Of a stretch of 64,000 bases of DNA, positions 28,914 to 63,156 are shown piece after piece. This DNA is from a virus: IMG/VR virus record IMGVR_UViG_3300034060_000702, positions 1-64,000 of that record. The stretch is one strand, 5' to 3'. The position numbers were made by a program, and so were the translations under genes. The notes below the pieces were generated by a model. That model worked only from the letters and a program-made list of their open reading frames with translations, was not told where the DNA came from and did no database searches. How positions within the stretch are numbered: the first letter of the stretch is position 1; each line of letters starts with the position of its first letter.

Positions 28914-31757
28914 TTAAGTTGTTGAATTTTGCTGAAGTCTAATCAACTCTTCAGGTGTTTGAACTTGATTTTCTGCATCGCTTGCATCACCAAGTTTGTA
29001 ATCTCCTTTTGCAACACCCATAACCATAGCAGCAATTTTATCAGGACTAACTCCTGGCATTTGTTTAACATACTCTGCATACATTCCAGGTATATCCATT
29101 TTGCTGTTTGTTTTCGGAGTAACAGGTTTTCCAGAACTATTGTAAATTACACCAGTAGCAATATCTTTTTTGAAATTGTTTGTGGTTTGATTTAAGTTAA
29201 ATATGTTCGAAGCATTAGTCCAAGCAGCATTTGATAACTCAACAATCTTATCTTTAGCAGCACTTATAGAATTGTCAAACTGTTGTTTTAAAGTTTGTCT
29301 TTTATCATGCATACTTGTTGCATTTGCAGCATCTTGAGCATTTGCAATATTTGCAAGTTGAGTATTTCTATCTTCAGCACTATTAAACAAACCTACATTC
29401 TTATCAGCATAATTGCTAATTTGATCTGCTACTTGTTCATATGCTTTACCTTGCATTTGAGAAACACCGGCAGCTAATTGACCGGGAGTTGCAAATGCTT
29501 GTAATCCAGCAATACCTTGACCAAGTTGAGAATTAACAGCAGCAATAGCTCTTTCCGGAGAATAGAACATTGTATCTGATTGTTGTGTTGCTCCAACTTT
29601 TGACCAAGGATCATATTTCTTAATATCATTTTTAGCATCAATTGCTCTATTTAAAGAAGCAATATCTTGTTTTCTAAAATCCCATTTACCAGGTACTGGA
29701 GGTTTAGCATTTAAAGGATTAGTTTTTACATCAACAGTTGAATCAATTTTTGCAGCTTCAGGTTCAATTTCATAATCAGGTTTCATTGAAAAACCAAAAG
29801 CATCAAAATGTTCAAAACCAGATTTTGCATCATCTTTATGAACAGGTCTATAGTCACCAGATGTTTTTAATTTATCTTCAATACCTCTTGTTACACCAGC
29901 AAAATTCTTTTTGTAAAAATCTTCTGACATTAATTCAGCATCATCTTTAGCTTTTACACCTAAGAAGCTAGTAAACTCTTTTTTGTTTACTAATCTTTTT
30001 GCAGGATCAGCAAAAGTTTCTTCAATTAATTTAAAACCTTCTTCTTCAGAAAGACCTTGACCTTTTGCTTTTTCAAGCAAGTATCTTTTTTCATAATCAT
30101 CTGGTGAAAATCCACCAACAAATGAACCGGTCTTATCTAACTTACCTTGAGCATTAGCAATTGAATAAGCACCAGTAGCTCCTTGATTAACAATTTTAAA
30201 CTTATCAGTACCAAAGTCTTTTCCTGATTTATTTATAGCTTTACTAATTGCAATCTTAGTTCTAAAGTCTGGATTAAATGTTCCAAGAACTTTAATACCA
30301 TTACCAACACATTTTCCATTCTTATCTTTTTTATTACATACAATAGTACCTGCTGCTAAACCATCTTCTATAGCTTTATTTGCTATTTTTAATGTTTCAG
30401 CATTAGTTACATCTTTACTCCATTCAGCTAACTCATTTGCAGCAGAAGTTTTAGTATTATTTGCTTTTACCTCACTACTCAAGTATCCTACTTTTCTGTA
30501 AGTACCATCTGGTTGTTCAACAAAGTCACCAACTTTAAATGAAGTATCTGTTGTTTTTTTAAATACAGCACCTTTAGGTACTTGATCTTTAGTATATGTT
30601 TTATATTTTTTAGTATCTGCTCCTCCATCTGCTTTAGGAAGACCAACAATAGTATACCTACCAGCTTGACCACCTTCTGCAAAATTATATGTAAGACCTG
30701 CTTTAACTTCAGGATTCCATAAGTCTTGAGGAAGCATAGTATTTTTAATACCTATGTTTGCATTTAATCCAGTTGGATTATTAGTTTCATATGAAAGACT
30801 AGCTTGCCCGCTTGGATTAAGTAAAGCACCAGGAACTGAAGAATTTTCTAAAGTTACATCTCCTTGTAAATTACCAACTTTTTTAGTAAAACCAATTGAT
30901 TGATTAGAAATTCTATTTTTAAAATCATCTATTAATGATTCAGTAGAGTAACCTGCATGTAATCCAGATTTATCAAAAACATTTACACCAGCACCAGCTA
31001 TTTGATCTGTTCTAACAACATTACCTTGCTCATCCTGTTGATCTTGATTATAACCATAAACAAAAGGATTTGCAGACAATCTATCTTTAAGTTTTGATAG
31101 TTTAGATTTACCACCTCCATCATCTTTCTTTTCTAAGAAACCTCCAAAGGCAGCTTGCATCTGTTGTCCTACAGCTTCTTGCTGTGCCTCATCTACTTTA
31201 AAAATATCATCTGGAGTAGTTTTAGTCTTATCAAAGAATGGAGCAAACTGTTCGCTAAATCCATCTTTCATTCCTTTTTTAGATTCTTGCCATAATGCTA
31301 ATGCAGATAATGCAAACCTAGAGTTATCTAAATTCTTAACAGCAGAAGCTTTTTGAATTTTATCAGCATACATATCTTTGATGATTGCTTTAGATTTAGC
31401 AACAGCATCAATATGCTTTTTAGAAATTTCAGCAGGTGTCATTCCTTTTTTAGATTCCACACCAAAAAACTCCAACTCTTCTTTATCCTTTATCAATAAT
31501 TTTTTGTTATCGGAATAAATAAAAGATGCACTTTTTCCATTATCATCACCAGTAGGCAAATCTAATGGAGTTCCACCAGCACTGTGTTTTTTACCACCTA
31601 TAGCTTTTAACTCAAAGATGTTATCATTTTCACTTAAATTAGTTAAAACTGTTTCACCTTTTTCAGCTTCTAAAACTGCTTTCTTTCTATCGACAGGTCC
31701 TACAGTTGTTTTTAACTTTTTCTTGGAACCATCAAATACATTTTTTTGAACAGCCAT
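28914..31757 (-). CDS. Putative internal virion/cargo protein (947 aa) with an N-terminal EAEKGE...GKKHSAGG module and an embedded beta-barrel-like segment
   Basis: ORF track; position; GG motifs; amphipathic strands ending in KAGLTYNF. Confidence 0.65.
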   Translation of the reverse strand: MAVQKNVFDGSKKKLKTTVGPVDRKKAVLEAEKGETVLTNLSENDNIFELKAIGGKKHSAGGTPLDLPTGDDNGKSASFIYSDNKKLLIKDKEELEFFGVESKKGMTPAEISKKHIDAVAKSKAIIKDMYADKIQKASAVKNLDNSRFALSALALWQESKKGMKDGFSEQFAPFFDKTKTTPDDIFKVDEAQQEAVGQQMQAAFGGFLEKKDDGGGKSKLSKLKDRLSANPFVYGYNQDQQDEQGNVVRTDQIAGAGVNVFDKSGLHAGYSTESLIDDFKNRISNQSIGFTKKVGNLQGDVTLENSSVPGALLNPSGQASLSYETNNPTGLNANIGIKNTMLPQDLWNPEVKAGLTYNFAEGGQAGRYTIVGLPKADGGADTKKYKTYTKDQVPKGAVFKKTTDTSFKVGDFVEQPDGTYRKVGYLSSEVKANNTKTSAANELAEWSKDVTNAETLKIANKAIEDGLAAGTIVCNKKDKNGKCVGNGIKVLGTFNPDFRTKIAISKAINKSGKDFGTDKFKIVNQGATGAYSIANAQGKLDKTGSFVGGFSPDDYEKRYLLEKAKGQGLSEEEGFKLIEETFADPAKRLVNKKEFTSFLGVKAKDDAELMSEDFYKKNFAGVTRGIEDKLKTSGDYRPVHKDDAKSGFEHFDAFGFSMKPDYEIEPEAAKIDSTVDVKTNPLNAKPPVPGKWDFRKQDIASLNRAIDAKNDIKKYDPWSKVGATQQSDTMFYSPERAIAAVNSQLGQGIAGLQAFATPGQLAAGVSQMQGKAYEQVADQISNYADKNVGLFNSAEDRNTQLANIANAQDAANATSMHDKRQTLKQQFDNSISAAKDKIVELSNAAWTNASNIFNLNQTTNNFKKDIATGVIYNSSGKPVTPKTNSKMDIPGMYAEYVKQMPGVSPDKIAAMVMGVAKGDYKLGDASDAENQVQTPEELIRLQQNSTT

Positions 31758-31760
31758 ATT

Positions 31761-34106
31761 TTAAGATTTTTGAATGTTAATACCATGAGCTTTAAATAAG
31801 GCAACATCATCATCACTTAAATCATATTGTCCACCTAATGCATATGTCTTACCACCAAGAGAATATACTTGCTGATTCATTGATTGACTAGTGTTAGTTA
31901 AGTTTTGAATTTCAGCACCTGTATCAGTACCACCCATAAAGTTACCAAATTGATCCCAACCTTGATTCTCTAATTGATTTCTTGGTCCATTTACAGCAGA
32001 TAACTTACCTTCATTTTCTTTATCAAGTCTTCTTTGTTCTGCTTCATTTGCAAATTTAGTAACCCAATCCATTCCTTGTTTACCAACATCAGCTGCAGCA
32101 TTCCAATCAACTTTAAGTTTACCTTTTTTATTCATAACCTCAACTTCTGTTTCAGCATTAAAAGGATTATCTTCAGGTAAACTGTAACCTCTTTCCATGA
32201 TTAATTCTTCTGAAGTTTTACCACCTGGACCAAATTTATTTAATCCTCCACCAAATGCCATCATAATAGTTTGAGCAGCTTTATGTAAATCAGATGAAGT
32301 TACACCACCAAAAGATTTCATTCCATGTGATTCTTGCATATACTTTAGTTTCTCATCTAAATCAGGTTCTACTACTTCTTCTTGACGTGGAGAATCAACT
32401 ATAGATTTATTTTCAGGAAAATGTAACATTGAAAAAGTAAGATTACGTGGGTTATCTTTAGTTTCAACAACAGGTTCAACAACAGGTTTAGAAGCTACAG
32501 GTATAGTTTCACCTGGTTTAAGAGGTATAGTAGTAGTAGGCGCAGTAGTAGGATTATTAAATGAAGACAAGCGATTAATAAAATTATGTGCTTCAGGACT
32601 TAAATCAGTAGCAGAATCATAAGTTTTTTGTTTAGGAAGTACTGGAAGTCGTCTGTAACCAAAAGTTTTATCATAAGCTTCTTGATTTCTTTTAAGTGAT
32701 GCTTGATTTTCTGCAATTTCTTCTGGTGTAGGGGTATAATCTTCTTCTTCTGAAGTTACAGGTGTAGTTGTTTTTTTAGGCATAACTTTTGAATTAGCTT
32801 TCATACCTGGTATATTCTCATCAACATATACATCATCTGGTATTTCGCTTGTTAAAGTAGAAGTTGCCGCAGTTGTTGGTGCAACTACCGCAGGAACTAC
32901 TGGTGGAACTACAGCAGTTACAGGAGGTATAGCACCAGGAGTTGTAGCAGTTGGTACAACTCCAGTTGGAGTAGCACCTTGCGCTGGATCCCAATTAATC
33001 TTATATTTCTTACCTACTACTTTTCTATTAAAAAGACCACCTCTAATATCTTCAGCTTCTGTTGTCTTCCATGTTCTTCCATCAGCAGTACCAGTACCTT
33101 TTCCAGGATCAAATAAATCTGAATAGTTAAAACCAGCAGGAACATTTTTTCCATTGATTTGCATTTGTCCAGGTTCTCTTCCAGAGTTACCAAACAATCT
33201 TGCTAATGATGATGTTCCAAATGTATTAGTTGGAGGCGCATAATTATAAACTATGTTATATCTTGGTTGACCATAAGGATTAATATTTGGATTACTAAAT
33301 TGAGGATTTTGTCCTGTATTAATAGCTGTTGCTACTGGAGCTTTATATTTACCTACTTCAGTTTTATAATCAAGCTTGGTTGTATTCTTGTCATCTGCAT
33401 TATAGTCATATAAAGCTTCAAGATATTCTCCTCTAGTTTTATACTTAGACATATCTAGACCACCATCAGCTTTAGGAAGATCTCCACCAAACTTCATGGA
33501 ATCTGGACTGTTTTGAAAAACTTGCTTACTAGCTTGATTCATTAATGCATTTTGTTTTATAGCATTAATAAAATTTGCTTGTCTATCTTGTACATAAGAA
33601 GCAGAGTTAACATTAAGATCAGCTTTACCACCAAATGCTTTTTCAATTAAATTAAATGCAGGACCTCCAAAAGCCATTTGCAATTCTTCATCTGTTGGTT
33701 GAGAAGCACCTTGTTGCTCTTGCATCATAGCCATTTCTTCAGGAGATGGTTGACCACCTTCTTGAGGCATACCTTGCGGAGCACCTTCCATCATTTCCTC
33801 TTGTGGATTAGATGCTTGACCTTCTATCTGCTCTTCACCAGGACCTTGTTGTTGTTGACCACCCTGCATAGCTTCTTGAATAGTAGCTTGTGCTTCTTCT
33901 GGAGCCATACCCATTTGAGTAAATACTTCCATGATCACTTCTGGTGGAACTTGACTACCTAATAATTGAGCAGCAACTTCTGCAGGTTGCGCACCTTGCT
34001 CCAACATTTGTTGAGCCATTTGCATTACTTGTTGCATTTGATCACCCCCTCCTTGTTGAGGAGCTTGTTGTGCTGGTGCACCTGGCATGTTTTGAGAATC
34101 TTCCAT
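31761..34106 (-). CDS. Putative internal virion protein (781 aa), low complexity, rich in GG motifs
   Basis: Q/E/M/P-rich N-terminus; MAFGG, KAFGG, MKFGG, KADGG, KSFGG, YSLGG and YALGG motifs; P/T-rich middle. Confidence 0.65.
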   Translation of the reverse strand: MEDSQNMPGAPAQQAPQQGGGDQMQQVMQMAQQMLEQGAQPAEVAAQLLGSQVPPEVIMEVFTQMGMAPEEAQATIQEAMQGGQQQQGPGEEQIEGQASNPQEEMMEGAPQGMPQEGGQPSPEEMAMMQEQQGASQPTDEELQMAFGGPAFNLIEKAFGGKADLNVNSASYVQDRQANFINAIKQNALMNQASKQVFQNSPDSMKFGGDLPKADGGLDMSKYKTRGEYLEALYDYNADDKNTTKLDYKTEVGKYKAPVATAINTGQNPQFSNPNINPYGQPRYNIVYNYAPPTNTFGTSSLARLFGNSGREPGQMQINGKNVPAGFNYSDLFDPGKGTGTADGRTWKTTEAEDIRGGLFNRKVVGKKYKINWDPAQGATPTGVVPTATTPGAIPPVTAVVPPVVPAVVAPTTAATSTLTSEIPDDVYVDENIPGMKANSKVMPKKTTTPVTSEEEDYTPTPEEIAENQASLKRNQEAYDKTFGYRRLPVLPKQKTYDSATDLSPEAHNFINRLSSFNNPTTAPTTTIPLKPGETIPVASKPVVEPVVETKDNPRNLTFSMLHFPENKSIVDSPRQEEVVEPDLDEKLKYMQESHGMKSFGGVTSSDLHKAAQTIMMAFGGGLNKFGPGGKTSEELIMERGYSLPEDNPFNAETEVEVMNKKGKLKVDWNAAADVGKQGMDWVTKFANEAEQRRLDKENEGKLSAVNGPRNQLENQGWDQFGNFMGGTDTGAEIQNLTNTSQSMNQQVYSLGGKTYALGGQYDLSDDDVALFKAHGINIQKS

Positions 34107-34168: not shown

Positions 34169-37100
34169 TTATCTTAATGACTGTAGCATATCTGCATATG
34201 CAATATTGACAAGCATTTCCACATTATCATTTTCCATTCTTCTTAATATCACGCGATGCTTATTGTTTCTAAACTTCTTTCTTTCAAATTCTGATTTTTG
34301 ATAATTAATTGAATCAGGGTTTATACTGCGAATGTAACCATTATCTTCTGTTTTCCATATGGTTTCCTTTACATTACTATACTCACCTCTGTCTTTAACT
34401 ATATCCCAAAATTGATTGAATCTATATTTTTGTTCTTCTTTAGAATACAATATATCGATTGAATTAAAGTTTACTTTTGGATAAGAAATCATATCACTTA
34501 AATCATTTTTAGGATTCAAGTTCAATTTTAACTTTCCAGAAATCTGTTCTGTATTATAAATTACAGCCTCATCAAAGTTTCGATCTAATAATAAAAATTT
34601 ATCATAGGTGTTCTTATCATAGATAGAAGCTTCAATGTAGTATTCGATGCTTCTTAAAGTAGTAACTTCTAAGTTTGTATCTAATTCAAATTCTACTTCA
34701 AAAGGATAAGAGTCACCATAATAATTACAATAGTTTGTAACACTTTTATTATGTCGCCAGAACCCATTTACTTTAGTTGTAATGAATGTATTCTTACCAG
34801 ACATAGCTAAGTCTGGATGCCAGTCATGGAATGAAACAAAATGATTAATCATTGGATCATAAGAAATAGTCCAAGAAGCATTGTTAAAATACATTGGATT
34901 CCCAACATGTGTTTCAAACATCCCACCAATTAAGAAAATACCATCTCCTTTATATTCGACAGTCATCAAAGGATTAGGTCCTTTGAATTCATCTTTTAAA
35001 GAGTAATCTTTTTTACAGAAATAAACAATACCATACTCATTATCATAAATAGTTTGGCAGCCAATTCCAGCAACTGGATTGTCATCAATATCGAAGTTTG
35101 GAAAATCTTCTTTTAACTTATATGGTAAATAAAGATTCAACCAAAATTCATTATGATTTAAAGACAATTCTTTTATTCCACCTGCATATTGAAATAGTTT
35201 ACCTTGATTCAAACACATCCAATATAAACCTGTAGGTGTATTTATTACAGATAATCTACTTTGACAAGAACCATACTCATAAGATCTTTCTGAATTAGAA
35301 AGTCTTTGTAAATCTCTTGCAAATAAACTACCATCTCCAATTTGAAGTTGAGTACCGCTACCAGTTTGTAATGTATCTACACCAGGAAGTAAACCAGGAG
35401 CAGTATTCTTAAACAGTATTAATGCTGCAGTTTTATCAATTGGTTTTATAGCTGTAACTTCACTGTCAAAGTCTTTATAATTATAAGGTAAGAATACTGA
35501 CCAATTATCTTTTTTTGTTTCAGTTTGTTGAGGTAATGAATACAACACTCTTCTAATTCTTTTTGTATAACAAGAAGCATATAACAAAGGATCATATTTT
35601 AATTCTTGTATAGTTGACCATGGAATTTTTGCAAATGGTAAAAAAGATACAGCAACACTTCGATCAAGTTTATAATAATTATCATTCTTAATAATATTAT
35701 TATGGAACATTGCATCTAAGTTACTTGTTATAGGATAGTGTCTTTTTTCAATTACTTCTCCATAATCACGACAGTCAATATTTAATTCAGACTCAACAAA
35801 GAATTCTCGAACTCCAGAATTAAACAAATACATGTATGCTTTTTTCAATGTAAACAAACCTTCACCCTTTCCATTCTTATCAAATACATGTAATGAAGAA
35901 GGTACACCTAAAGCTTGAAAAAAAGCATCTGCGGCATTTGGATTATCTTTAAACATTCTATCAGCTGCATTTTTAAAAGCATCTGATATAGATGATGTAA
36001 AGTCACTAAAATCATAATTTTCAGTATTCATCCAATAAGATGTATACTCAAACATTTGATGCAATCTATAATTAAGTTCAGCTCCATCAGGTTCACCATG
36101 TAACCATTGTTGAAAATAGTATAATGTATTTTTTTCAGAATACTTTCCAATATATGTATCACCACCAAAAACTATATCAGATTTAGATTGATTTACATTA
36201 TAGATAAATGATTGTGTTGGAATAATTTTAATATTTGTTAATTGACCATATTGATTTCGCAATCTATTTTTTATTGCAACATAATGAGAAGAAGCTCTAT
36301 AAAAATTATCCGCAAATTGTGCAGAATCCTCAAGAGCATTAATTTTTGGAGGTCTAGATATATCTTGTATAGTTGGATCTGATACATTTGATGTTGTTGT
36401 AAGTACAACAGTTTCTTGTCTATGAGTATGATTAATTACATAGTTTTGTGAAGGTGTATATAAATCATATAATCCAGGATTTAAGTATTTAGCATTATGT
36501 AACTTCTTTCTAATATTTGCAGGATTTGGAATACCAAAGTTTTCATATTGACAAACAGAAACATGTTGATAAGCAAATTGAGAATATTTAGAAATAGATT
36601 TTATCAACTCTAAAAAAGAGTTTGCTCCTTCTCCTAAATAATTTGTAAACACAGGAATTGCTGTAATAGCTCTTAATAAACCAGGACTTCTATCTACATT
36701 ATCATAACTTATTTCCGTATGCCCAGATACTAATTGAGAACCAGGAATTAAACTTGCAACAAATCCAGCATCTTGAGCAAAAGCTTTGGCAACATAGTTT
36801 GTAGAAGCAACTCCATAGTTTTGACCAGTAAATACATCAGCTACAGTTGTAGTACCTTCTAATGCTATAGAACCTATATCCGATGCTAAACCTACAACAC
36901 CTGCTGCAGATAAACCAGGAACAATACCTCCAAGACCATTTGCAAGACCTGCATAAGCTTCAAGCCATGGTAACGAACTACCATCTCCTTTAGAAGAAAC
37001 ATATTTTGTATTTCTTGTACCAGATACTTTACCAATAGCATATCCAATACCTATTACAACACTAACAGTAAATGCAAAGTTTGTTACAAATTTATGTCTT

Positions 37101-39163
37101 GGATGTTCATCAACAGGTTTGTAATGTCCTTTAGACATACCATACATTTCCCCATAAATTTTTAATTCATCATCTACAAGAAATGGTTTAACAAACATTG
37201 TATCTGGTGAATGGAATGTAAAGTTTTTTCTATTCACAGCATCATTAGGAACTAAGTGAATTACTTTTCCAGTAACTTCAGTTATACCAGGAGCTTTAGA
37301 AATAAATGGATCTGGTCGCAAATCATTGAATGGATAGTTTGCATACATTCCTTTTTGCTTACCTGCGTTAACAACAGATGGTAAATCATACTCAAACATG
37401 TTATTGATTAATCCTTTGTATAAAACAGTTTTATTACCATTTCTACTTCCTCTAAGGATTTCATAACCAACAATCGATTTAATCTTTACACCATTATTGT
37501 CAACAGGTGGTTTGATATTCTCAAACTGAACACCCATAATTCTAATCTTATCTCCACCATCACTATAGTGATTAGAGTTAGTATTCTTAGTACCACCAGA
37601 AGAAATAACATTTTCAGGAAACTTATGATGTCTAATTGGTTTACCACATAAATCATGATCTGGAATTTGAGAAGCAGACCAAGTGTGTGCACTTGCATTC
37701 CATACAGTAGGATTCTTATCCGGATAAAATTCAGAAGATTCATGGTAAGCCATTCTTCCCCTTTGAATAACTACACCACCATCAGGTAGTTCAGGATTAG
37801 GAACAGGTAAACTTGAGTTATCTACCCAAGCAGTATTATAAACTTCAAATACTTTAGGAGCATAACCTTGTTCGATAATATTAGCAGAGCCTGGCGCAGT
37901 TGCATTTTCTATTAATGTAGCAGCAACACCACCAGCATCTGAAGGTACTTTGTAATCAACAGGACCTCTTCCTGGAATATGATATGCTTTTGTTTTATCT
38001 CCAGTATTATGAATCCATCTAATGAAAAAAGGATATACTTCATCACGCATATAACCAACATTAACCCCAGCATTCTTGTAGTACTCTTTTGTGTATTCAA
38101 CACAAGTCCACCAAGATTGAATTTGATTTGCTAATGGTTGGTAATTAAACTCAAACTTTTCAGTTGGAGCAACTCTTAATGCATACATACCATTTTCATA
38201 TATCCCTTCCGATTTGTCTGGAACTGGGGTAAGAATAGGCAGGCTTTCTAAAGATACTATAGGGAGAGTAAGATCAACAAAATCTATTATGACAGCACTT
38301 TGACTAGTACTATAAGAACCAATCTTTCTTGCAACTGTCTTCTCCGATATAGTAGATACCAATACCAAATCAAAATCATCAAAGTCTGTATCAAGATTGT
38401 CAAACTGAATCTCAATAGCATTGTTTACATTCTCATGACTCCATAGAGCAACCACATTAGACATAGTAGAGTAATCAGATACCTGTTGTCCATTTACAGT
38501 ATAGCAAATATGTACATGGTAAGAACCATTTAACATACTACCACCAGAAACTCCCTTAGCTATTTTTATATTAGGATAGGTAAGATAACTCTCCAATCGG
38601 ATTTTATCGCAGTCAAGGATCTTATTTCCATCTACATCAGTCTTATCTACACAAGTAATACATCCACCGGGCAAGGAACCGTTACTATCACTACATGTTT
38701 GCACCCAAGGAATCTTTTCAGTATCAACTACCCTATCCGGATTTATACCATCTGCAAAGTATACTTTGTAAGAACAATCAAATGTTGCTCTAGAAACTCC
38801 TTTAATTAAATGTGAGGTTTTAAAATTCAAACAAGCATCTCTAACAAGTTTCACATAAGTGCAAGCACCCTCATCGAACATGCCAATTTCAGACTCATAA
38901 TTATTTGTGCTGAATACTATCCATTCTGTTCCAACAATGTGTATTGCACCTATAACAGTAAATGGAGCAATAGTACAAAGTATATTTCCAAACTCATTAC
39001 CTAGTTTACCTAAATCACCTTTTCTAGAATTATTAGATGCATTCCTTGCATAAGTCCAACTACCTTGAGGAGCTCCTCCTCCTGCTGGTTCATTAATTTG
39101 CATCCCAGTTGAGAATGAAGCACCTGTTTGTGTTGAACTTTGTCCTGAAGATTTCTTAGCCAT
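34169..39163 (-). CDS. Tail muzzle / tail stabilisation protein (crAss-like)
   Basis: 1664 aa, beta-rich. Motifs GYMRDEVY, GYEILRG, FGGDTYI and WTISYD...SFHDW resemble crAss-like muzzle proteins; follows the ring-protein genes. Confidence 0.75.
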   Translation of the reverse strand: MAKKSSGQSSTQTGASFSTGMQINEPAGGGAPQGSWTYARNASNNSRKGDLGKLGNEFGNILCTIAPFTVIGAIHIVGTEWIVFSTNNYESEIGMFDEGACTYVKLVRDACLNFKTSHLIKGVSRATFDCSYKVYFADGINPDRVVDTEKIPWVQTCSDSNGSLPGGCITCVDKTDVDGNKILDCDKIRLESYLTYPNIKIAKGVSGGSMLNGSYHVHICYTVNGQQVSDYSTMSNVVALWSHENVNNAIEIQFDNLDTDFDDFDLVLVSTISEKTVARKIGSYSTSQSAVIIDFVDLTLPIVSLESLPILTPVPDKSEGIYENGMYALRVAPTEKFEFNYQPLANQIQSWWTCVEYTKEYYKNAGVNVGYMRDEVYPFFIRWIHNTGDKTKAYHIPGRGPVDYKVPSDAGGVAATLIENATAPGSANIIEQGYAPKVFEVYNTAWVDNSSLPVPNPELPDGGVVIQRGRMAYHESSEFYPDKNPTVWNASAHTWSASQIPDHDLCGKPIRHHKFPENVISSGGTKNTNSNHYSDGGDKIRIMGVQFENIKPPVDNNGVKIKSIVGYEILRGSRNGNKTVLYKGLINNMFEYDLPSVVNAGKQKGMYANYPFNDLRPDPFISKAPGITEVTGKVIHLVPNDAVNRKNFTFHSPDTMFVKPFLVDDELKIYGEMYGMSKGHYKPVDEHPRHKFVTNFAFTVSVVIGIGYAIGKVSGTRNTKYVSSKGDGSSLPWLEAYAGLANGLGGIVPGLSAAGVVGLASDIGSIALEGTTTVADVFTGQNYGVASTNYVAKAFAQDAGFVASLIPGSQLVSGHTEISYDNVDRSPGLLRAITAIPVFTNYLGEGANSFLELIKSISKYSQFAYQHVSVCQYENFGIPNPANIRKKLHNAKYLNPGLYDLYTPSQNYVINHTHRQETVVLTTTSNVSDPTIQDISRPPKINALEDSAQFADNFYRASSHYVAIKNRLRNQYGQLTNIKIIPTQSFIYNVNQSKSDIVFGGDTYIGKYSEKNTLYYFQQWLHGEPDGAELNYRLHQMFEYTSYWMNTENYDFSDFTSSISDAFKNAADRMFKDNPNAADAFFQALGVPSSLHVFDKNGKGEGLFTLKKAYMYLFNSGVREFFVESELNIDCRDYGEVIEKRHYPITSNLDAMFHNNIIKNDNYYKLDRSVAVSFLPFAKIPWSTIQELKYDPLLYASCYTKRIRRVLYSLPQQTETKKDNWSVFLPYNYKDFDSEVTAIKPIDKTAALILFKNTAPGLLPGVDTLQTGSGTQLQIGDGSLFARDLQRLSNSERSYEYGSCQSRLSVINTPTGLYWMCLNQGKLFQYAGGIKELSLNHNEFWLNLYLPYKLKEDFPNFDIDDNPVAGIGCQTIYDNEYGIVYFCKKDYSLKDEFKGPNPLMTVEYKGDGIFLIGGMFETHVGNPMYFNNASWTISYDPMINHFVSFHDWHPDLAMSGKNTFITTKVNGFWRHNKSVTNYCNYYGDSYPFEVEFELDTNLEVTTLRSIEYYIEASIYDKNTYDKFLLLDRNFDEAVIYNTEQISGKLKLNLNPKNDLSDMISYPKVNFNSIDILYSKEEQKYRFNQFWDIVKDRGEYSNVKETIWKTEDNGYIRSINPDSINYQKSEFERKKFRNNKHRVILRRMENDNVEMLVNIAYADMLQSLR

Positions 39164-39165
39164 TA

Positions 39166-40101
39166 TTAATGAGATTTAAACATGTTGTAATAATTATGGT
39201 ATTGAGCTTTTCTATTAGTTTCCCATATAGCTCTCAACTCTCTAAAGTCTGGTGTATTAACCAAACTCATTGCATTATTTCTAGCAGCTCTATATCTTTG
39301 TTCAATCAATTGAATTTGCCCTTGATTAACAGCTTCTCCATTCATAATTAAGTTTTCCAATAGTCTTTGCTTAACAGCATACTCATAGAACTCATTTAAC
39401 AAATCATGATCAGGAACAAGTAAGTTACCTTCTTCATCCTCCAACATACCTTGATAGTTTATATACAACTTCCCAGTCTGGAATGAAGTATAGATAAAAC
39501 CATTTTTAATGTATGCAGAATTTGCAGTCTGTACTTTCTTATTAGGACAATTCATGCTAACTACATTCCCATCATCTTTAATTCGAATAGGATAAAAATT
39601 CTTATAAGTTCTAGTTTCATACTTTAACTTTTGAACTAAAACAGTTTCTTCACCCTTGCAGTTTACTTGAGTTACACATGCAGTAGCACATGTACACTTT
39701 GGTTTTTGTACCAAACACTTTCCACAAATAGTAGGAGGAGTAGAAACAACTGGAGTTACACAAATATTAATTTCATTTGGTCCTGGATTATACATCTGGC
39801 TAACAGGTACAGACTCTATGTGAGTTCCTTGAGGTATAACTTCATTTACAGTATATTCAGATATAATGTAAGCAAAGTTTAAAGCATTGAAATCATTAGG
39901 TAATTTTGTTTTACCTTTTTCAATATCCAATACATCATCTTTTGTTTTAAAGATTTTGAATCCAAGTTCATAATTACATCGCTTTGCAATTTTAATAAAC
40001 TCTTGTGGATTAATCAGATCTTCTAAAGCGAAGTTTCTAAACTCATATATGACTTCAGAAAGTAACTGATCATATGTTCTATAATTTACTTTACTTGCCA
40101 T
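39166..40101 (-). CDS. Tail ring / tubular protein
   Basis: GKTKLPNDF and YIKNGFIYTSFQTGKLYINY...DEEGNLLVPD motifs; directly upstream of the muzzle gene. Confidence 0.7.
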   Translation of the reverse strand: MASKVNYRTYDQLLSEVIYEFRNFALEDLINPQEFIKIAKRCNYELGFKIFKTKDDVLDIEKGKTKLPNDFNALNFAYIISEYTVNEVIPQGTHIESVPVSQMYNPGPNEINICVTPVVSTPPTICGKCLVQKPKCTCATACVTQVNCKGEETVLVQKLKYETRTYKNFYPIRIKDDGNVVSMNCPNKKVQTANSAYIKNGFIYTSFQTGKLYINYQGMLEDEEGNLLVPDHDLLNEFYEYAVKQRLLENLIMNGEAVNQGQIQLIEQRYRAARNNAMSLVNTPDFRELRAIWETNRKAQYHNYYNMFKSH

Positions 40102-40102
40102 C

Positions 40103-40780
40103 TTATCTTAAAATATGTTGTGAATCATCATTTACATCACTTGGTATTTTACCAAGAGTCATCATTTCTTGTTGAACCATTTGTTCTATTTCAGCAAACA
40201 AATGAACAGGAACATTGAATGTTGTGTTTTGTTTAATCTCACAACTAGTGTCTTCTCCATCTTCTTTACAGTAACCTTCAGTTGAATCTTCAAACATTCC
40301 TTCTATAGATACAGACTCCCATCTTATATCTGGAAAGTATAAGTATCCATTTTTATACCAATAGTATTTGTTTTTATTATATTTGAAATGTGTAGAGTTA
40401 GTCATTGCTTGATAAAGAGTTGCTTTAGTTTGAGTAAAAGCTTGTCTACCATCAATAGATGTAATGTTTCGAAAGATAGGACCAATAGATCCACTGAATA
40501 CTTTAGGAAGCTTCTTGTAAGTTCTCATGATTTTACAACCCGTTTTTATACCAGCACAATCAGCTTCGATTCTATCAACCTCAACCAACTCAACATAAGG
40601 CAAGACTTCAAACAAACTGTCATAGTTCATGAGTTTGTTTTCATTATCTTGTCTTCTCATTATAGCATAAGCATACTTATTTATAATGGAATAGATAGTT
40701 CTATCAGTTAGAAAAGCATCTTCAGAAACTGCTTTTAAAATATTTCTTATTCTTGAAATCGATTCTCCAATTGTCATCAT
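40103..40780 (-). CDS. Tail ring protein
   Basis: 225 aa; RTYKKLPK, YYWYKNGYLY, GMFED and a C-terminal DVNDD; sits between the IHF-like and tubular genes. Confidence 0.6.
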   Translation of the reverse strand: MMTIGESISRIRNILKAVSEDAFLTDRTIYSIINKYAYAIMRRQDNENKLMNYDSLFEVLPYVELVEVDRIEADCAGIKTGCKIMRTYKKLPKVFSGSIGPIFRNITSIDGRQAFTQTKATLYQAMTNSTHFKYNKNKYYWYKNGYLYFPDIRWESVSIEGMFEDSTEGYCKEDGEDTSCEIKQNTTFNVPVHLFAEIEQMVQQEMMTLGKIPSDVNDDSQHILR

Positions 40781-57363: not shown

Positions 57364-58980
57364 TTATAAAGAATAACCAGTGATTGGGTTTCTCATAACG
57401 ATTTTCAACACTTTAGTTGGATCTTCTACTTTGATCGCAGGCATTGCTTGTGTCATGTAGATTTGGTATCCATTGAAGTTACCTGAAGATTGGAACCCTT
57501 GAGTTCTTCCCATGTAATCCATAGAACCATTAACATATCTCCAAACAAGGTCTTTGTTCCAAGCACATTTCAACAATTTGATGTTATCATTACCATTTTC
57601 AGTAATATCAAATACGATGAATGAGTAAGAAGACAATCTATGACCATCAATGATTGGGTTCTCAATATCATTGTTTTGTAAGTTATCGAATGCTGGATTC
57701 AATACAAACTTGATATTAGCTAAGAAAGGAATCATGTACTCTGTGAAAGAGAATCCGAATCCTAAATCCATTCCTTGACCTTTGATAGCATCAAGTTCTT
57801 TAGCGTTCATAACCAATCCAGAAGAGAAAGCTTCGCGCTTAATCGCTTCATTGATCATTCTCATACCACCCATACCTGTTTGAACAATCAATGATCTTTT
57901 AGAATCTGGTCCTTGGAAATCAACTTTACCATTGTAGAAGTTGAATAATTCAGAACGGAAGATGTCTAATTTGAAATCAGATTTGTTGTATACATGTTTG
58001 AAAGACAAATCTAATTGTTTCCAAAGTCCAACTGATAATCTTAAATCATCTGGCCCATCTTGTTTGATTCGACCACCTTTACCCCACATTAAGTAAGTTT
58101 CGATGTCATAAGCAATTTTGGACAAGTGAGCTGCTTCCAACTTAGTGATAAAAGTTCTAACTAAGTTACCATTAGCTTGCGCTTTTTTGATATAGTCAGC
58201 ACCTTTAGCTTTCACCATTCCTTCTAAAGAAGTAATTGATGGATCTAAACTTGTGTCAAAAGATTTCCATAACTCTGTTACAGGTACTTTTCCATCTGCA
58301 TTCATACCACCTTTTTCCATCAACTTCACTTTAGAAGAGATTGAATAATGAACGTGTGCATCTGCATTACCAACATAGTTGTAGAACTCTCTTGTTGTAG
58401 CAGTAGTTGTAAGATCAGAATATCTTTCACCATATTCACCTCTTGCAGAACCTACTCTGAAATAGAATGATTGTGATGTCAAGAATGCATTATCAAATAC
58501 TGCATCTGAATCATTGTTTACTAACTGTACTGTATAGATAACTCCATCAGTTAAATCAAGAATTTCCTCATCAGTGATGAATAATTCTTTACCATTGAAC
58601 TTATCATAAGTGATGATGTCACCATGACCAAAAGTTCTTTTGTTCAATTTGATTTTAAATGGAGTTCCATCTAAACCTTTCATTGAGTTGTTAGAATCTA
58701 AATCCTCAACAATGAATGGAAGCTCTTCAGAAACTGGTGTGCTCCATTTGTATTCACCTCTTGGGTGTTGAACGTCAATAACATTCTTACCACCAAAAGA
58801 AGACATTTGATAAAGAGGCATCTCAACTTTTTTAACTTGAGCCCATAATTCTACTGGACCTAAATCATCTGGTTGTGCATCTTTCATCAAATTCATCATG
58901 TGATAAGAATCTACATGCGAACTTGCTGTGTAATGGTTATCCCGAAGGAACATTCCATTATTTAAAACTGGTGTACTCAT
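57364..58980 (-). CDS. Major capsid protein (crAss-like, HK97 fold)
   Basis: 538 aa; portal-scaffold-MCP order; motifs YLMWGKG, GLWKQL, VQTGMGG and FVLNPAFD; biased codon usage; strong terminator. Confidence 0.85.
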   Translation of the reverse strand: MSTPVLNNGMFLRDNHYTASSHVDSYHMMNLMKDAQPDDLGPVELWAQVKKVEMPLYQMSSFGGKNVIDVQHPRGEYKWSTPVSEELPFIVEDLDSNNSMKGLDGTPFKIKLNKRTFGHGDIITYDKFNGKELFITDEEILDLTDGVIYTVQLVNNDSDAVFDNAFLTSQSFYFRVGSARGEYGERYSDLTTTATTREFYNYVGNADAHVHYSISSKVKLMEKGGMNADGKVPVTELWKSFDTSLDPSITSLEGMVKAKGADYIKKAQANGNLVRTFITKLEAAHLSKIAYDIETYLMWGKGGRIKQDGPDDLRLSVGLWKQLDLSFKHVYNKSDFKLDIFRSELFNFYNGKVDFQGPDSKRSLIVQTGMGGMRMINEAIKREAFSSGLVMNAKELDAIKGQGMDLGFGFSFTEYMIPFLANIKFVLNPAFDNLQNNDIENPIIDGHRLSSYSFIVFDITENGNDNIKLLKCAWNKDLVWRYVNGSMDYMGRTQGFQSSGNFNGYQIYMTQAMPAIKVEDPTKVLKIVMRNPITGYSL

Positions 58981-60417: not shown

Positions 60418-63156
60418 TTATTTGCTAGGTTTTTTATCATACTGATTTTTGTTTTCTCTTGCAACTTGTAGATCTATTTGTTTATCCATTGCAGCTTGGT
60501 TAAGTTTCTGTTTTTCAATCTCTAACTTTTGTTGTGCAAGATTTGTTCTAGTTGCTTCTTTTTCTTGATTGAATCCCATAGTTTCTTGATACTGATCATT
60601 TTTACGCATTGCATCTAATGTATCAGTAAAATCAGATTGTTGATTTTGATTGATGTCTTGTTGAGCACCATATCCTGCAGCTTTAATTTCTGCTTCAAGT
60701 AATCTGTTTCTTCTATCTTTTTCTTTCTCTCTAGACTCATGATCAAACACCATTTGTTTCTCTTTTTGTCTTGCTTGAATTTCTGCTTGTTGAGCTTCTT
60801 GTGCTTGTTGTTGTTGTGCTTGTTGTTGAGCTTGAGCTTTAGCCTCAATAGATTTAAGAGCATTGTTAAGAGAACCAATTGAATCTGCCTGCATAACACC
60901 TCCCAATTCATAAATAGATGCACCAGTAGTGTTGTTTTGTACAAACATTTGTTTTAACTGTTCAAGAATAGTTCTATGATTTACATTTGTAGTACCATAG
61001 CAATTCAAATCTGCTAATAACAAATCTGTACCATTGATTTCGAAATTAGTTCTTTCATCTGGAGAAATCATTCCTTGTAACTTCACTGAAGGTTTTGTAG
61101 AATGATAAAACTGTGCAAGATCAGTTCTCATCTGGTGAACTCTAGGCATTAAGTGATCTGAATGCTGAATGAAGTAAACTTCAGTCTGTGCAAAAGAACC
61201 AGTCATTGCTTGTTCTACTCCGGTAGCAGTATTTATTTGACCAAGTTGTTGGCCCATTCTTTGAGGATTTAATCCTACAACTTCCATTGCTTGTTGCTTA
61301 AAATAATTTGCAAGTTGAATTCTTGATTGCAACCTTGCAGTTTGTTCTAAGTTTAAAGTTTGGTAGTGTTGAAAATTAGATGTTGTTTCTGTATTTTGAA
61401 TAGAAGGATCTAAGGGCAACATTGAAAAATCTTTCATCGCTACATAAGCTTTAGCAAGATTCCCTTTACCCCAGTCTTCTCCCATTGAATGTCTTGGTAA
61501 TGCATTTTGGTCTAACACCACAACAGTACCAATTTCATCTATAAGAATATCTGCTATCTGATTGTTACATAAATTGTATCCAATCTGTGCAGGCTTCATC
61601 TGGTCAACCAATGATGTAGATTTAGTATTTCTATCCGAGAATACTCTTCCTTCAATTGGTAACTTACAACCATACATTGAAGAATCTCCTTTAAATTGAA
61701 ATCTTAATGGTCCAGGTGTAGGTCTTCCAACTCCTATGTACATAGAATCAAAATCACCATCATCATTTAAGTAATTAAATACAGATCTATTGTTTCCAAT
61801 TTTTACACCAGCATTAGTTTGGTTAATCCAAATCCAATCAATATGATCTCCAAATACAAGATTATCTGCACTTCTTACATCAGTAAATGACATGTTGTAA
61901 ATTGGATTTGTTCTAACTACATAATTCTCATCAATGATTTCAGTCACAACTTGACCATCTTCATCAATTTTAGTTAAGTTACCAATTCTTCTTTGTGTTT
62001 TCCAATATACATGAGTAACTCTTAACATTTCAGAGTTATTGATATATCCTGTGTGCTCACTTTCTCCAAGTACCCAAGATACAATATCGCTTGATTCAAT
62101 GTTTGAATCGATATGAGCTAAGTGTCTTTTCATATCAACACCCATAACTCTATTCTCATCATAGGTTTCATCGGAATTGTATAATGAACCATCATTTGGA
62201 ATACCATCAACAAGATATTTTGCTGAACTGGAAGGATTCAATCTTTCTAGTTTTTCCAATTGTTCATCAGTCATCAAGTAACCATGTATATCAATTACAT
62301 CTGCAATAGACATCATATCAATAAAACCAGAATAGTTTCCTTGAGAAACATATTTAGTTGAAGGTGATTTATGGTAAAAAGTCAAAGCAGGATTCAATAC
62401 TTCAACATCATAGTCATCTTCAAGCATCCTAAAGTGCCAGAATTCCGAATCTGTAATTAAGGAATCTCTAAAAGCAACTTCTTCCAGTTCATCCATGTGA
62501 AATCTATTAACATCAATAGCATGTTGCTTAACAGCCCATTGCTCACTTAATGTTTGATATGATTTAGAATAGAACTTTTCAATTTGTGGTAATTTCTTTA
62601 ATGCTTCTGGATCGATTTGCTGTTTAGCTTCTTCTGATTCAGGATCCATTCCCATCTCAATCATTTTAGATATAAGTTTCTGGGAAGCATCTTGAATTAA
62701 AGCACTACCAATTTCATCAGCTTTCTTATTCATTATCTCATTGTATGAATACTCATCCAATGCGCGATAATCTATTTTAGTATTTCTTTTAGCAAACTCA
62801 CTAACAAGTGTATTTACAATGTTTGGAATTATTGGATAGAATTTTAATTCCATTGCAGAATCTGTATCTTCTACAAGTACATCCAATATGTCAACCATAT
62901 CATTGTCTACTTCTGGAATATAATCAGTCTTATCAATTACACCTTTTGCAAGTTTGTAATTCTTCATCAATCTTCTTGACTTCTCTCTGATTTGTTTTAT
63001 CCCTTGCCATTCAATCCAATCAATGTTATGTCTATACCATTCTTCATCCTTTTCCTCTATAGGTAAGAACTGAATTGGTTGTGTGAATACATTATATCTA
63101 TTTTTATTTTTAGATTTTTTTCCACCTTTAAGGTCCATTGCATTTAATACTTCCAT
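60418..63156 (-). CDS. Portal protein
   Basis: 912 aa directly after the terminase; FYPIIPNIVNTLVSE, RVTHVYWK, SLVDQMKPAQ and PQRMGQ motifs; Q-rich coiled-coil C-terminal barrel. Confidence 0.85.
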   Translation of the reverse strand: MEVLNAMDLKGGKKSKNKNRYNVFTQPIQFLPIEEKDEEWYRHNIDWIEWQGIKQIREKSRRLMKNYKLAKGVIDKTDYIPEVDNDMVDILDVLVEDTDSAMELKFYPIIPNIVNTLVSEFAKRNTKIDYRALDEYSYNEIMNKKADEIGSALIQDASQKLISKMIEMGMDPESEEAKQQIDPEALKKLPQIEKFYSKSYQTLSEQWAVKQHAIDVNRFHMDELEEVAFRDSLITDSEFWHFRMLEDDYDVEVLNPALTFYHKSPSTKYVSQGNYSGFIDMMSIADVIDIHGYLMTDEQLEKLERLNPSSSAKYLVDGIPNDGSLYNSDETYDENRVMGVDMKRHLAHIDSNIESSDIVSWVLGESEHTGYINNSEMLRVTHVYWKTQRRIGNLTKIDEDGQVVTEIIDENYVVRTNPIYNMSFTDVRSADNLVFGDHIDWIWINQTNAGVKIGNNRSVFNYLNDDGDFDSMYIGVGRPTPGPLRFQFKGDSSMYGCKLPIEGRVFSDRNTKSTSLVDQMKPAQIGYNLCNNQIADILIDEIGTVVVLDQNALPRHSMGEDWGKGNLAKAYVAMKDFSMLPLDPSIQNTETTSNFQHYQTLNLEQTARLQSRIQLANYFKQQAMEVVGLNPQRMGQQLGQINTATGVEQAMTGSFAQTEVYFIQHSDHLMPRVHQMRTDLAQFYHSTKPSVKLQGMISPDERTNFEINGTDLLLADLNCYGTTNVNHRTILEQLKQMFVQNNTTGASIYELGGVMQADSIGSLNNALKSIEAKAQAQQQAQQQQAQEAQQAEIQARQKEKQMVFDHESREKEKDRRNRLLEAEIKAAGYGAQQDINQNQQSDFTDTLDAMRKNDQYQETMGFNQEKEATRTNLAQQKLEIEKQKLNQAAMDKQIDLQVARENKNQYDKKPSK

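Follow-up and report, generated by a model that had tools for sequence, protein, structure and literature searches.

An optional, predicted outer-membrane-protein-like beta module inside a putative cargo protein of a crAss-like phage

The stretch of DNA analysed here (the window) is 64,000 nucleotides (nt) long and corresponds to positions 1 to 64,000 of the IMG/VR record IMGVR_UViG_3300034060_000702. The record is derived from an uncultured lake crAss-like phage (82 kb, with an estimated completeness of 69%). On the minus strand, which carries all genes of the window, a putative cargo protein of 947 amino acids (aa), here called P0001, contains an eight-strand segment resembling an outer membrane protein (OMP). 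This observation was made in a preliminary description of the DNA and is confirmed. The best explanation is that residues about 224-359 are a self-contained optional cassette, which lies in the disordered Gly-rich linker that joins the conserved N-terminal domain of P0001 to its central domain. The assignment of the module to an OMP-like eight-strand structure is moderately well supported. It is new in this analysis that the beta segment is an optional cassette and that the protein family holds other, unrelated beta-rich modules.

The beta segment and its predicted fold

The segment was originally placed at 30681-31070, and these coordinates are correct to the base, with the codon of N230 starting at 31070 and that of F359 ending at 30681. 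All eight strand peptides quoted for it are found in P0001. The parts of P0001 in and around the segment are the following, with the predicted local distance difference test score (pLDDT) of the AlphaFold2 (AF2) model where it is low.

30681-31079, minus strand: OMP-like beta module, residues 227-359, based on the AF2 model, fold matches and dyad enrichment
30681-30704, minus strand: last strand KAGLTYNF, residues 352-359, fitting the beta-signal of the beta-barrel assembly machinery (BAM), the sole match in the protein
31080-31151, minus strand: Gly-rich linker 1, residues 203-226 (AAFGG, KDDGGG and a short helix), pLDDT <50 at 205-223
30615-30680, minus strand: Gly-rich linker 2, residues 360-381 (AEGG ... 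LPKADGG), pLDDT <50 at 345-381
30684-31088, minus strand: indel, residues 224-358, defined against the relative P0007 by pairwise alignment

The amphipathic pattern is stronger than expected from the composition. The segment (132 aa) contains five strict alternating-hydrophobic 7-mers, against a mean of about 1 in shuffled sequences, and only 7 of 5000 shuffles reach five (p=0.0014). The beta segment is the maximum window for this count across the whole of P0001. Charged residues account for 15.8% of the segment versus 28.6% of the rest of P0001, and G, N, Q, S, T and Y together account for 47% versus 34%. The gaps between the quoted strands alternate between long and short (12, 3, 11, 3, 10, 5 and 11 residues). 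The consensus of the BAM beta-signal to which the last strand was likened, polar-x-G-x-x-aromatic-x-aromatic, is seen once in 947 residues, at 352-359. F359 is invariant in 7 of 7 cassette bearers. The segment is internal and no export signal is present, as described earlier: P0001 has no signal peptide, its N-terminus is polar, and the protein lacks any hydrophobic stretch or helix (its Kyte-Doolittle mean over 19 residues peaks at 0.87).

The AF2 model of P0001 was built from a 148-row alignment, 7 rows of which cover the beta segment, and its mean pLDDT is 78.5. It independently predicts an eight-strand meander, with antiparallel strands at residues 227-241, 247-262, 266-275, 278-294, 297-307, 314-323, 332-342 and 350-356. 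The pLDDT is 75-83 for the first five strands (residues 230-300). A single-sequence AF2 model of the segment is useless, with a pLDDT of 36.6.

The best Foldseek matches in PDB for the whole 947-aa model are OmpU, OmpC, CdiB, FimD, designed transmembrane (TM) barrels and OmpX. The E-values of these barrel matches are weak (0.017-0.4), and the TMt is 0.46 for a designed 8-strand barrel and 0.30 for OmpX. Alignment of residues 220-363 of the model by VIA-align gave the following scores (rmsd, root-mean-square deviation).

BrkA beta domain: Z 9.2, rmsd 3.6, 139 aa
Designed barrel TMB10_163: Z 9.1, rmsd 3.4, 114/142 aa
OmpG: Z 8.6
NalP: Z 8.1
LpxR: Z 8.0

Soluble barrels scored lower (VtrC, Z 6.7; nitrobindin, Z 6.6). 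A wide fold search, independent of Foldseek, covered 48,161 PDB chains. Among its best 50 rows, all those spanning residues 222-370 are outer-membrane barrels, led by BrkA (9.1), KdgM (8.7), VhGalP (8.1), a COG4313 channel (8.0) and OmpG (7.9). In the ESM Atlas, the nearest named clusters were Attacin_C, Gloverin and Phage_OMP (0.76-0.81), but these values are at chance level.

The segment has no paralogue in the genome. Inside it, a repeat of 13/14 nt is seen at 30759-30772 and 30954-30967, 195 nt (65 codons) apart. Its two copies encode TGLNA, where strand 7 begins, and SGLHA, where strand 3 begins, which hints at a duplicated four-strand half. An internal duplication of two four-strand halves was examined by hhalign. 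The halves align in register, but the E-value of 0.044 is not significant.

An optional cassette between glycine-rich linkers

Eight sequences in two distant clades bear the cassette: P0001, P0002, P0003 and P0262 in one clade, and P0025-27 and the IMG/VR locus L009 in the other. Of the close relatives aligned with P0001, only P0002 (overall identity 92%) and P0003 (74%) share its residues about 210-358. Searching 5.8 billion proteins with just the segment yielded no matches other than P0002, P0003 and the fragment P0262, and scans of IMG/VR and JGI metagenomes with the segment gave no match. The distant clade of P0025-27 and L009, about 39% identical overall, contains a homologous cassette at the same site, with hidden Markov model E-values of 1e-56 to 1e-59. 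Hydrophobic alternation is kept in P0025-27 at about 38% identity, and 31 positions inside the cassette (residues 230-359) are invariant in both clades. Between P0001 and P0003, the identity is 63% in the cassette and 69.5% in the central domain, a similar divergence rate.

The cassette is present in only 1 of 80 IMG/VR relatives. The linker at its site is hypervariable, with a median length of 8 residues in the relatives. Three different gap endpoints are seen among relatives without the cassette. In P0007, L223 is joined to F359. P0004 and P0006 retain a remnant of the last strand (NP-x-AKT-NF-x-KGG), and P0005 retains remnants of both cassette ends (..LKD and LWN..). In a quick tree (47 of the 148 rows, with the linker removed beforehand and with SH-aLRT, an approximate likelihood ratio test, as the only support), sequences with and without the cassette intermingle in a single well-supported clade, and P0025-27 are placed in the other half. 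The simplest reading of these comparisons would be that the module is old and was lost recently and independently at least three times in the clade of P0001. Transfer of the cassette by recombination could also account for the pattern.

Its size, its beta content and its clean indel made the cassette a candidate mini-intein. Mini-inteins are marked by an N-terminal Cys or Ser, a C-terminal His-Asn, and Cys, Ser or Thr at position +1. The indel begins with Lys-Asp-Arg and ends with Tyr-Asn followed by Phe, and it contains no TxxH block. An intein is thus ruled out because the boundary residues do not fit.

The four GG motifs reported around the segment are present: AAFGG (202-206), KDDGG (211-215), FAEGG (359-363) and KADGG (375-379). 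They do flank the segment, but they are not specific to it. AAFGG is nearly invariant in the 148 relatives, and relatives that lack the cassette still have the F-x-x-GG and LPK..GG motifs. P0001 and the neighbouring 781-aa protein together contain 21 GG sites, most of them [F/L]GG. The two proteins also share LPKADGG..KYKT (30621-30641 and 33459-33479), with 20 of 22 bases identical over the core. The pattern [FYW]x[FYW]x(1-3)GG is not enriched family-wide (50 found versus 39 expected).

In one pair of relatives (type B), P0029 contains SAFGG, a beta module and FQFATGG, while P0028, which is 94% identical and has no module, contains the single hybrid junction AIQFAFGG. This pattern suggests that the GG linkers are the places where cassettes are lost or exchanged. 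It is as expected for loss or gain by recombination between two F-x-x-GG junctions, and it is not a demonstration of cleavage at GG. A direct repeat of 11/13 nt, AGGTGGTNAANCT (coding strand), brackets the cassette of P0001 at 31104-31116 and 30663-30675, 441 nt apart and in frame. It encodes GGGKS and EGGQA, and may be a mere by-product of GG codons; none of the observed deletions uses its exact points. The 16-nt junction-repeat core of the giant virion protein does not flank this cassette.

Alternating beta stretches rich in Gly and aromatic residues are found in several other family members, either in the linker that holds the cassette in P0001 or elsewhere in the protein. P0029, P0043 and P0047 have a 107-aa module at residues about 220-320, ending in AGARFQFATGG. 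The module of L083 and L068 (1501-3700; open reading frame (ORF) residues about 355-525) is about 170 aa long, and that of P0227 is located at residues about 680-790 and ends in TTFGASYSFKNGG. In several of these modules, the final aromatic-x-Phe precedes GG. Judged by eye and by their dyad count, the modules resemble OMPs. Homology among the four module types was considered and rejected, as only the last strand and GG align (E 0.002-0.2).

The host protein and its gene context

P0001 has no match in Pfam, PHROG or NCBIfam, and tblastn found no match among 50,697 phage records, including gp45 and gp46 of crAss001. A word-indexed search found 145 relatives, and an exhaustive search showed that this unnamed family comprises at least 1405 clusters at 50% identity. 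A scan of IMG/VR with the whole P0001 gave no match. The corresponding scan of JGI metagenomes gave three matches, all of which miss the segment: two end fragments that are near-identical, and a distant relative (34%). A few relatives contain Peptidase_M23 or glucosaminidase domains, which fits a family working in or crossing the cell envelope. In BFVD, the best fold match of P0001 is a 'Structural protein' of Cellulophaga phage phi4:1 (E 5.5e-5), and weaker matches are crAss proteins annotated as 'Cargo protein 1 compact domain' (E only 0.016-0.09).

Apart from the module and its linkers, P0001 is composed of three domains, listed here with the neighbouring genes of the window.

31149-31721, minus strand: conserved N-terminal domain, residues 13-203, ending in AAFGG (pLDDT mostly 82-94)
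29754-30614, minus strand: central compact alpha/beta domain, residues 382-668, conserved across the family (pLDDT mostly 81-97)
28917-29690, minus strand: C-terminal helical domain, residues 690-947, in the AF2 model, with a helix of about 100 residues (758-858)
28914-31757, minus strand: P0001, 947-aa putative cargo (ejection) protein hosting the beta module, second gene past crAss_MUZ
31761-34106, minus strand: neighbouring putative cargo protein of 781 aa, rich in [F/L]GG motifs
34169-39163, minus strand: crassvirus muzzle protein gene (PF25731 crAss_MUZ, E 7.5e-31)
39166-40101, minus strand: tail ring protein 1 (CrAss_Ring_1, Pfam)
40103-40780, minus strand: tail ring protein 2 (CrAss_Ring_2, Pfam)
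57364-58980, minus strand: crassvirus major capsid protein (Crass_capsid, Pfam)
60418-63156, minus strand: portal (PHROGs)

The N-terminal domain contains eight residues invariant in the 148 sequences: E30, E32, E35, H58, G62, S82, E158 and K161. The motifs around invariant residues are EAEKGET ... GGKKHS.GGTPL ... SDN. From their conservation, these residues may form a catalytic or metal site of a large unnamed family of virion proteins. The C-terminal helical region shows weak matches to TcdA1 and to chains of the T7 tail and ejection apparatus (Z 7.3-7.5), which are not significant for helices. Within it, the helical hairpin at residues 712-811 (29325-29624) matches 8e4g_a (Z 7.4) and 7ey7_A (Z 7.4, rmsd 2.6), chains from T7 tail and early-infection structures. 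It also matches the channel region of TcdA1 (Z 7.5). All these values are under the level that the tool regards as meaningful for helices.

Downstream of the muzzle gene, ORFs of 781, 947, 1169, 2369 and 4674 aa follow in this order. The last three are taken as putative giant virion-polymerase genes and provide supporting context. In crAss001, the position after the muzzle gene is held by the cargo proteins gp45 and gp46, followed by virion RNA-polymerase proteins (Bayfield et al. 2023, PMC10172136). P0001 likewise lies between the muzzle gene and putative virion RNA-polymerase genes. Because gp45 and gp46 occupy the same gene position, the label 'cargo protein', already given in the preliminary description, is reasonable, and P0001 is probably packed in the phage particle and ejected into the host.

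Possible roles of the module

It is tentatively proposed that the module is delivered by the virion and inserted into the host outer membrane as an accessory anchor; this is a plausible reading, held at less than even confidence. P0001 would be made in the cytoplasm without an export signal and then packaged into the virion while its module is either unfolded or restrained by the charged stretches that flank it. During infection, the protein would be extruded via the tail and the muzzle. By itself or together with further copies, the module would then fold into the outer membrane of the host and would anchor a trans-envelope ejection conduit.

Several observations weigh against a membrane barrel. 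The last three strands of the model (310-350) have a pLDDT of only 47-57. By the aligner's own statement, a best Z of 7-8 is common, and the Z of 8-9 obtained for the module barely exceeds this background. True 8-strand barrels fit less well (OmpX, TMt 0.30; TMB2.3, Z 6.3, rmsd 5.1). The segment has no Pfam or NCBIfam match at E<=10, and sequence searches of PHROGs and PDB were empty. Nor does the genome contain a match to the OMP families PF13505, PF13568 or PF24653 at E<=10. The hydrophobic face of the module has just 3-5 residues per strand, and P0262 has Glu at a putative lipid-facing position in strand 1. The putative long loops PGAxxNPS and KNTMLPQ(D/N)LWNP (KNTMLPQDLWNP) are among the best conserved stretches, in contrast to typical OMPs, whose surface loops are not among the best conserved parts. 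The beta-signal-like strand is followed by 588 more residues and overlaps the generic F-x-x-GG junction of the family. Besides, an OMP-type domain made in the cytoplasm should tend to aggregate. Finally, P0007 is 97.9% identical to the cassette-bearing P0003, and P0004 is 90.5% identical to P0002, yet neither P0007 nor P0004 has the cassette.

The fit favours barrels of 10-14 strands (rmsd 3.4-3.8), with the curvature of the model closer to that of 10-12-strand than of 8-strand barrels, and the better fit to these than to 8-strand barrels suggests an open or wide sheet in the model, which may need more than one copy. As near-identical phages exist without the module, it cannot be an essential part of a channel. 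The module is probably an accessory whose value depends on the host envelope, because it has been repeatedly lost and because unrelated beta modules are found in the linkers of the family.

The main rival to membrane anchoring is a soluble or virion-internal beta domain without a membrane role. It is somewhat unlikely. Such a domain might form a small barrel or sheet of the meander type and bury its hydrophobic face in the barrel or in an oligomer interface. It could serve as a spacer, as a packing or docking element in the lumen of the capsid or tail, or as a binding domain. Soluble meander barrels, too, typically have alternating strands, and two soluble barrels, VtrC and nitrobindin, do align with the model. 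P0001 has to remain soluble in the cytoplasm, the module is dispensable, and of its highly conserved putative loops one looks helical in the single-sequence model. However, none of the top 50 rows of the wide fold search that concern this region is a soluble fold. The polar face contains much Gly, Asn and Ser and few charged residues (compared with 28.6% charged residues in the rest of the protein), and the last strand matches the beta-signal consensus exactly.

It is improbable that the segment is a semi-disordered, low-complexity expansion of the linker without a function of its own and that the barrel model is an artefact of the dyad pattern. The pLDDT of the single-sequence model, the seven alignment rows over the segment, the hypervariable linker with its short median length, and the repeated loss are what such an expansion would show. 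On the other hand, the 31 invariant positions, the alternation conserved between clades about 38% identical, the divergence rate similar to that of the folded central domain and the pLDDT of 75-83 over five strands are contrary to it.

Very improbable is the original suggestion that the segment is excised at the GG motifs as a free outer-membrane barrel, acting as a channel or as a BAM-engaging or exclusion factor: the low-confidence linkers on either side do contain GG motifs, cleavage behind FAEGG would create a new C-terminus four residues beyond the beta-signal-like strand, and the 8-strand barrel Lom of phage lambda blocks superinfection, according to a study cited in 10.64898/2026.10.24.761521, but excision is unsupported because the motifs are generic family linkers kept without the cassette, it is pure conjecture because no protease family was detected in the head module, and an exclusion factor would be expected with a signal peptide in an infected or lysogenic cell, not within a virion protein.

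The small monomeric OMPs compared with the module were OmpX/Ail/Lom, the OmpA N-domain, the 12-strand KdgM/NanC, the beta-domains of the autotransporters BrkA and NalP, and designed TM barrels. Like these, the module in the model consists of amphipathic strands in an all-next-neighbour antiparallel order, with alternating short and long connections and both termini on one side. It is also similar in its high content of Gly, Asn and Tyr, in its few charged residues, in its terminal aromatic-x-Phe strand and in its best fold matches. Unlike them, it has no signal peptide, lies midway in a putative virion protein made in the cytoplasm, belongs to no OMP sequence family and has conserved loops. 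With about 133 aa, the module is, to our knowledge, shorter than any natural OMP.

P0001 resembles the crAss001 cargo proteins C1 (gp45) and C2 (gp46) in gene position, size and expected role and through the weak fold matches. Both proteins are expected to form a trans-envelope channel after ejection (Bayfield et al. 2023, PMC10172136), and gp45 is predicted to use a transmembrane helix (PMC10172136). P0001 differs from them in having no detectable sequence similarity, no hydrophobic helix, and a beta module.

The outer-membrane parts of podophage ejectosomes, T7 gp14, N4 gp52 and DEV gp73, are alpha-helical (PMC13434306, PMC11445570). They are delivered by the virion without an export signal and enter the outer membrane from the phage side, which is the functional analogy proposed here. 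These proteins are small, separate and helical, and their bilayer activity is demonstrated, whereas the P0001 module is a predicted beta structure inside a multidomain protein.

Stand-alone phage OMPs with signal peptides are also known, such as lambda Lom and the OMPs of huge phages, and the 6-strand OMP-like family IPR056410 of cyanophages is predicted to pair into a 12-strand barrel (bioRxiv 10.64898/2026.10.24.761521). Like them, the module would be an OMP-type barrel encoded by a phage, and an incomplete barrel that may need more than one copy is a precedent for its curvature. The stand-alone proteins have a signal peptide and are expressed in the infected cell, unlike the module, and PF24653 (Phage_OMP) is unmatched in this genome. 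A full-text literature search turned up no account of virion or ejection proteins that contain an OMP-type module.

It can be speculated further, as an unlikely generalisation, that crAss-like phages deliver an exchangeable OMP-type barrel from the virion without Sec, which anchors or opens the DNA-ejection conduit, and that the cassettes are acquired, lost and swapped at GG junctions with changes of host. Such a barrel could fold alone, by joining several copies, or via BAM.

crAss-like phages are among the most abundant phages known, and the envelope that they cross is that of Bacteroidota. As known phage ejection pores are helical, the module, if the proposal is true, would represent a novel means of holding on to the host envelope, and a virion-delivered beta-barrel would be a new principle of entry. 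Such a barrel would in addition exemplify in nature how an OMP-type domain folds into a membrane from outside the usual Sec/BAM route. The presence or absence of the module between near-identical phages is a natural experiment on host range or infection efficiency.

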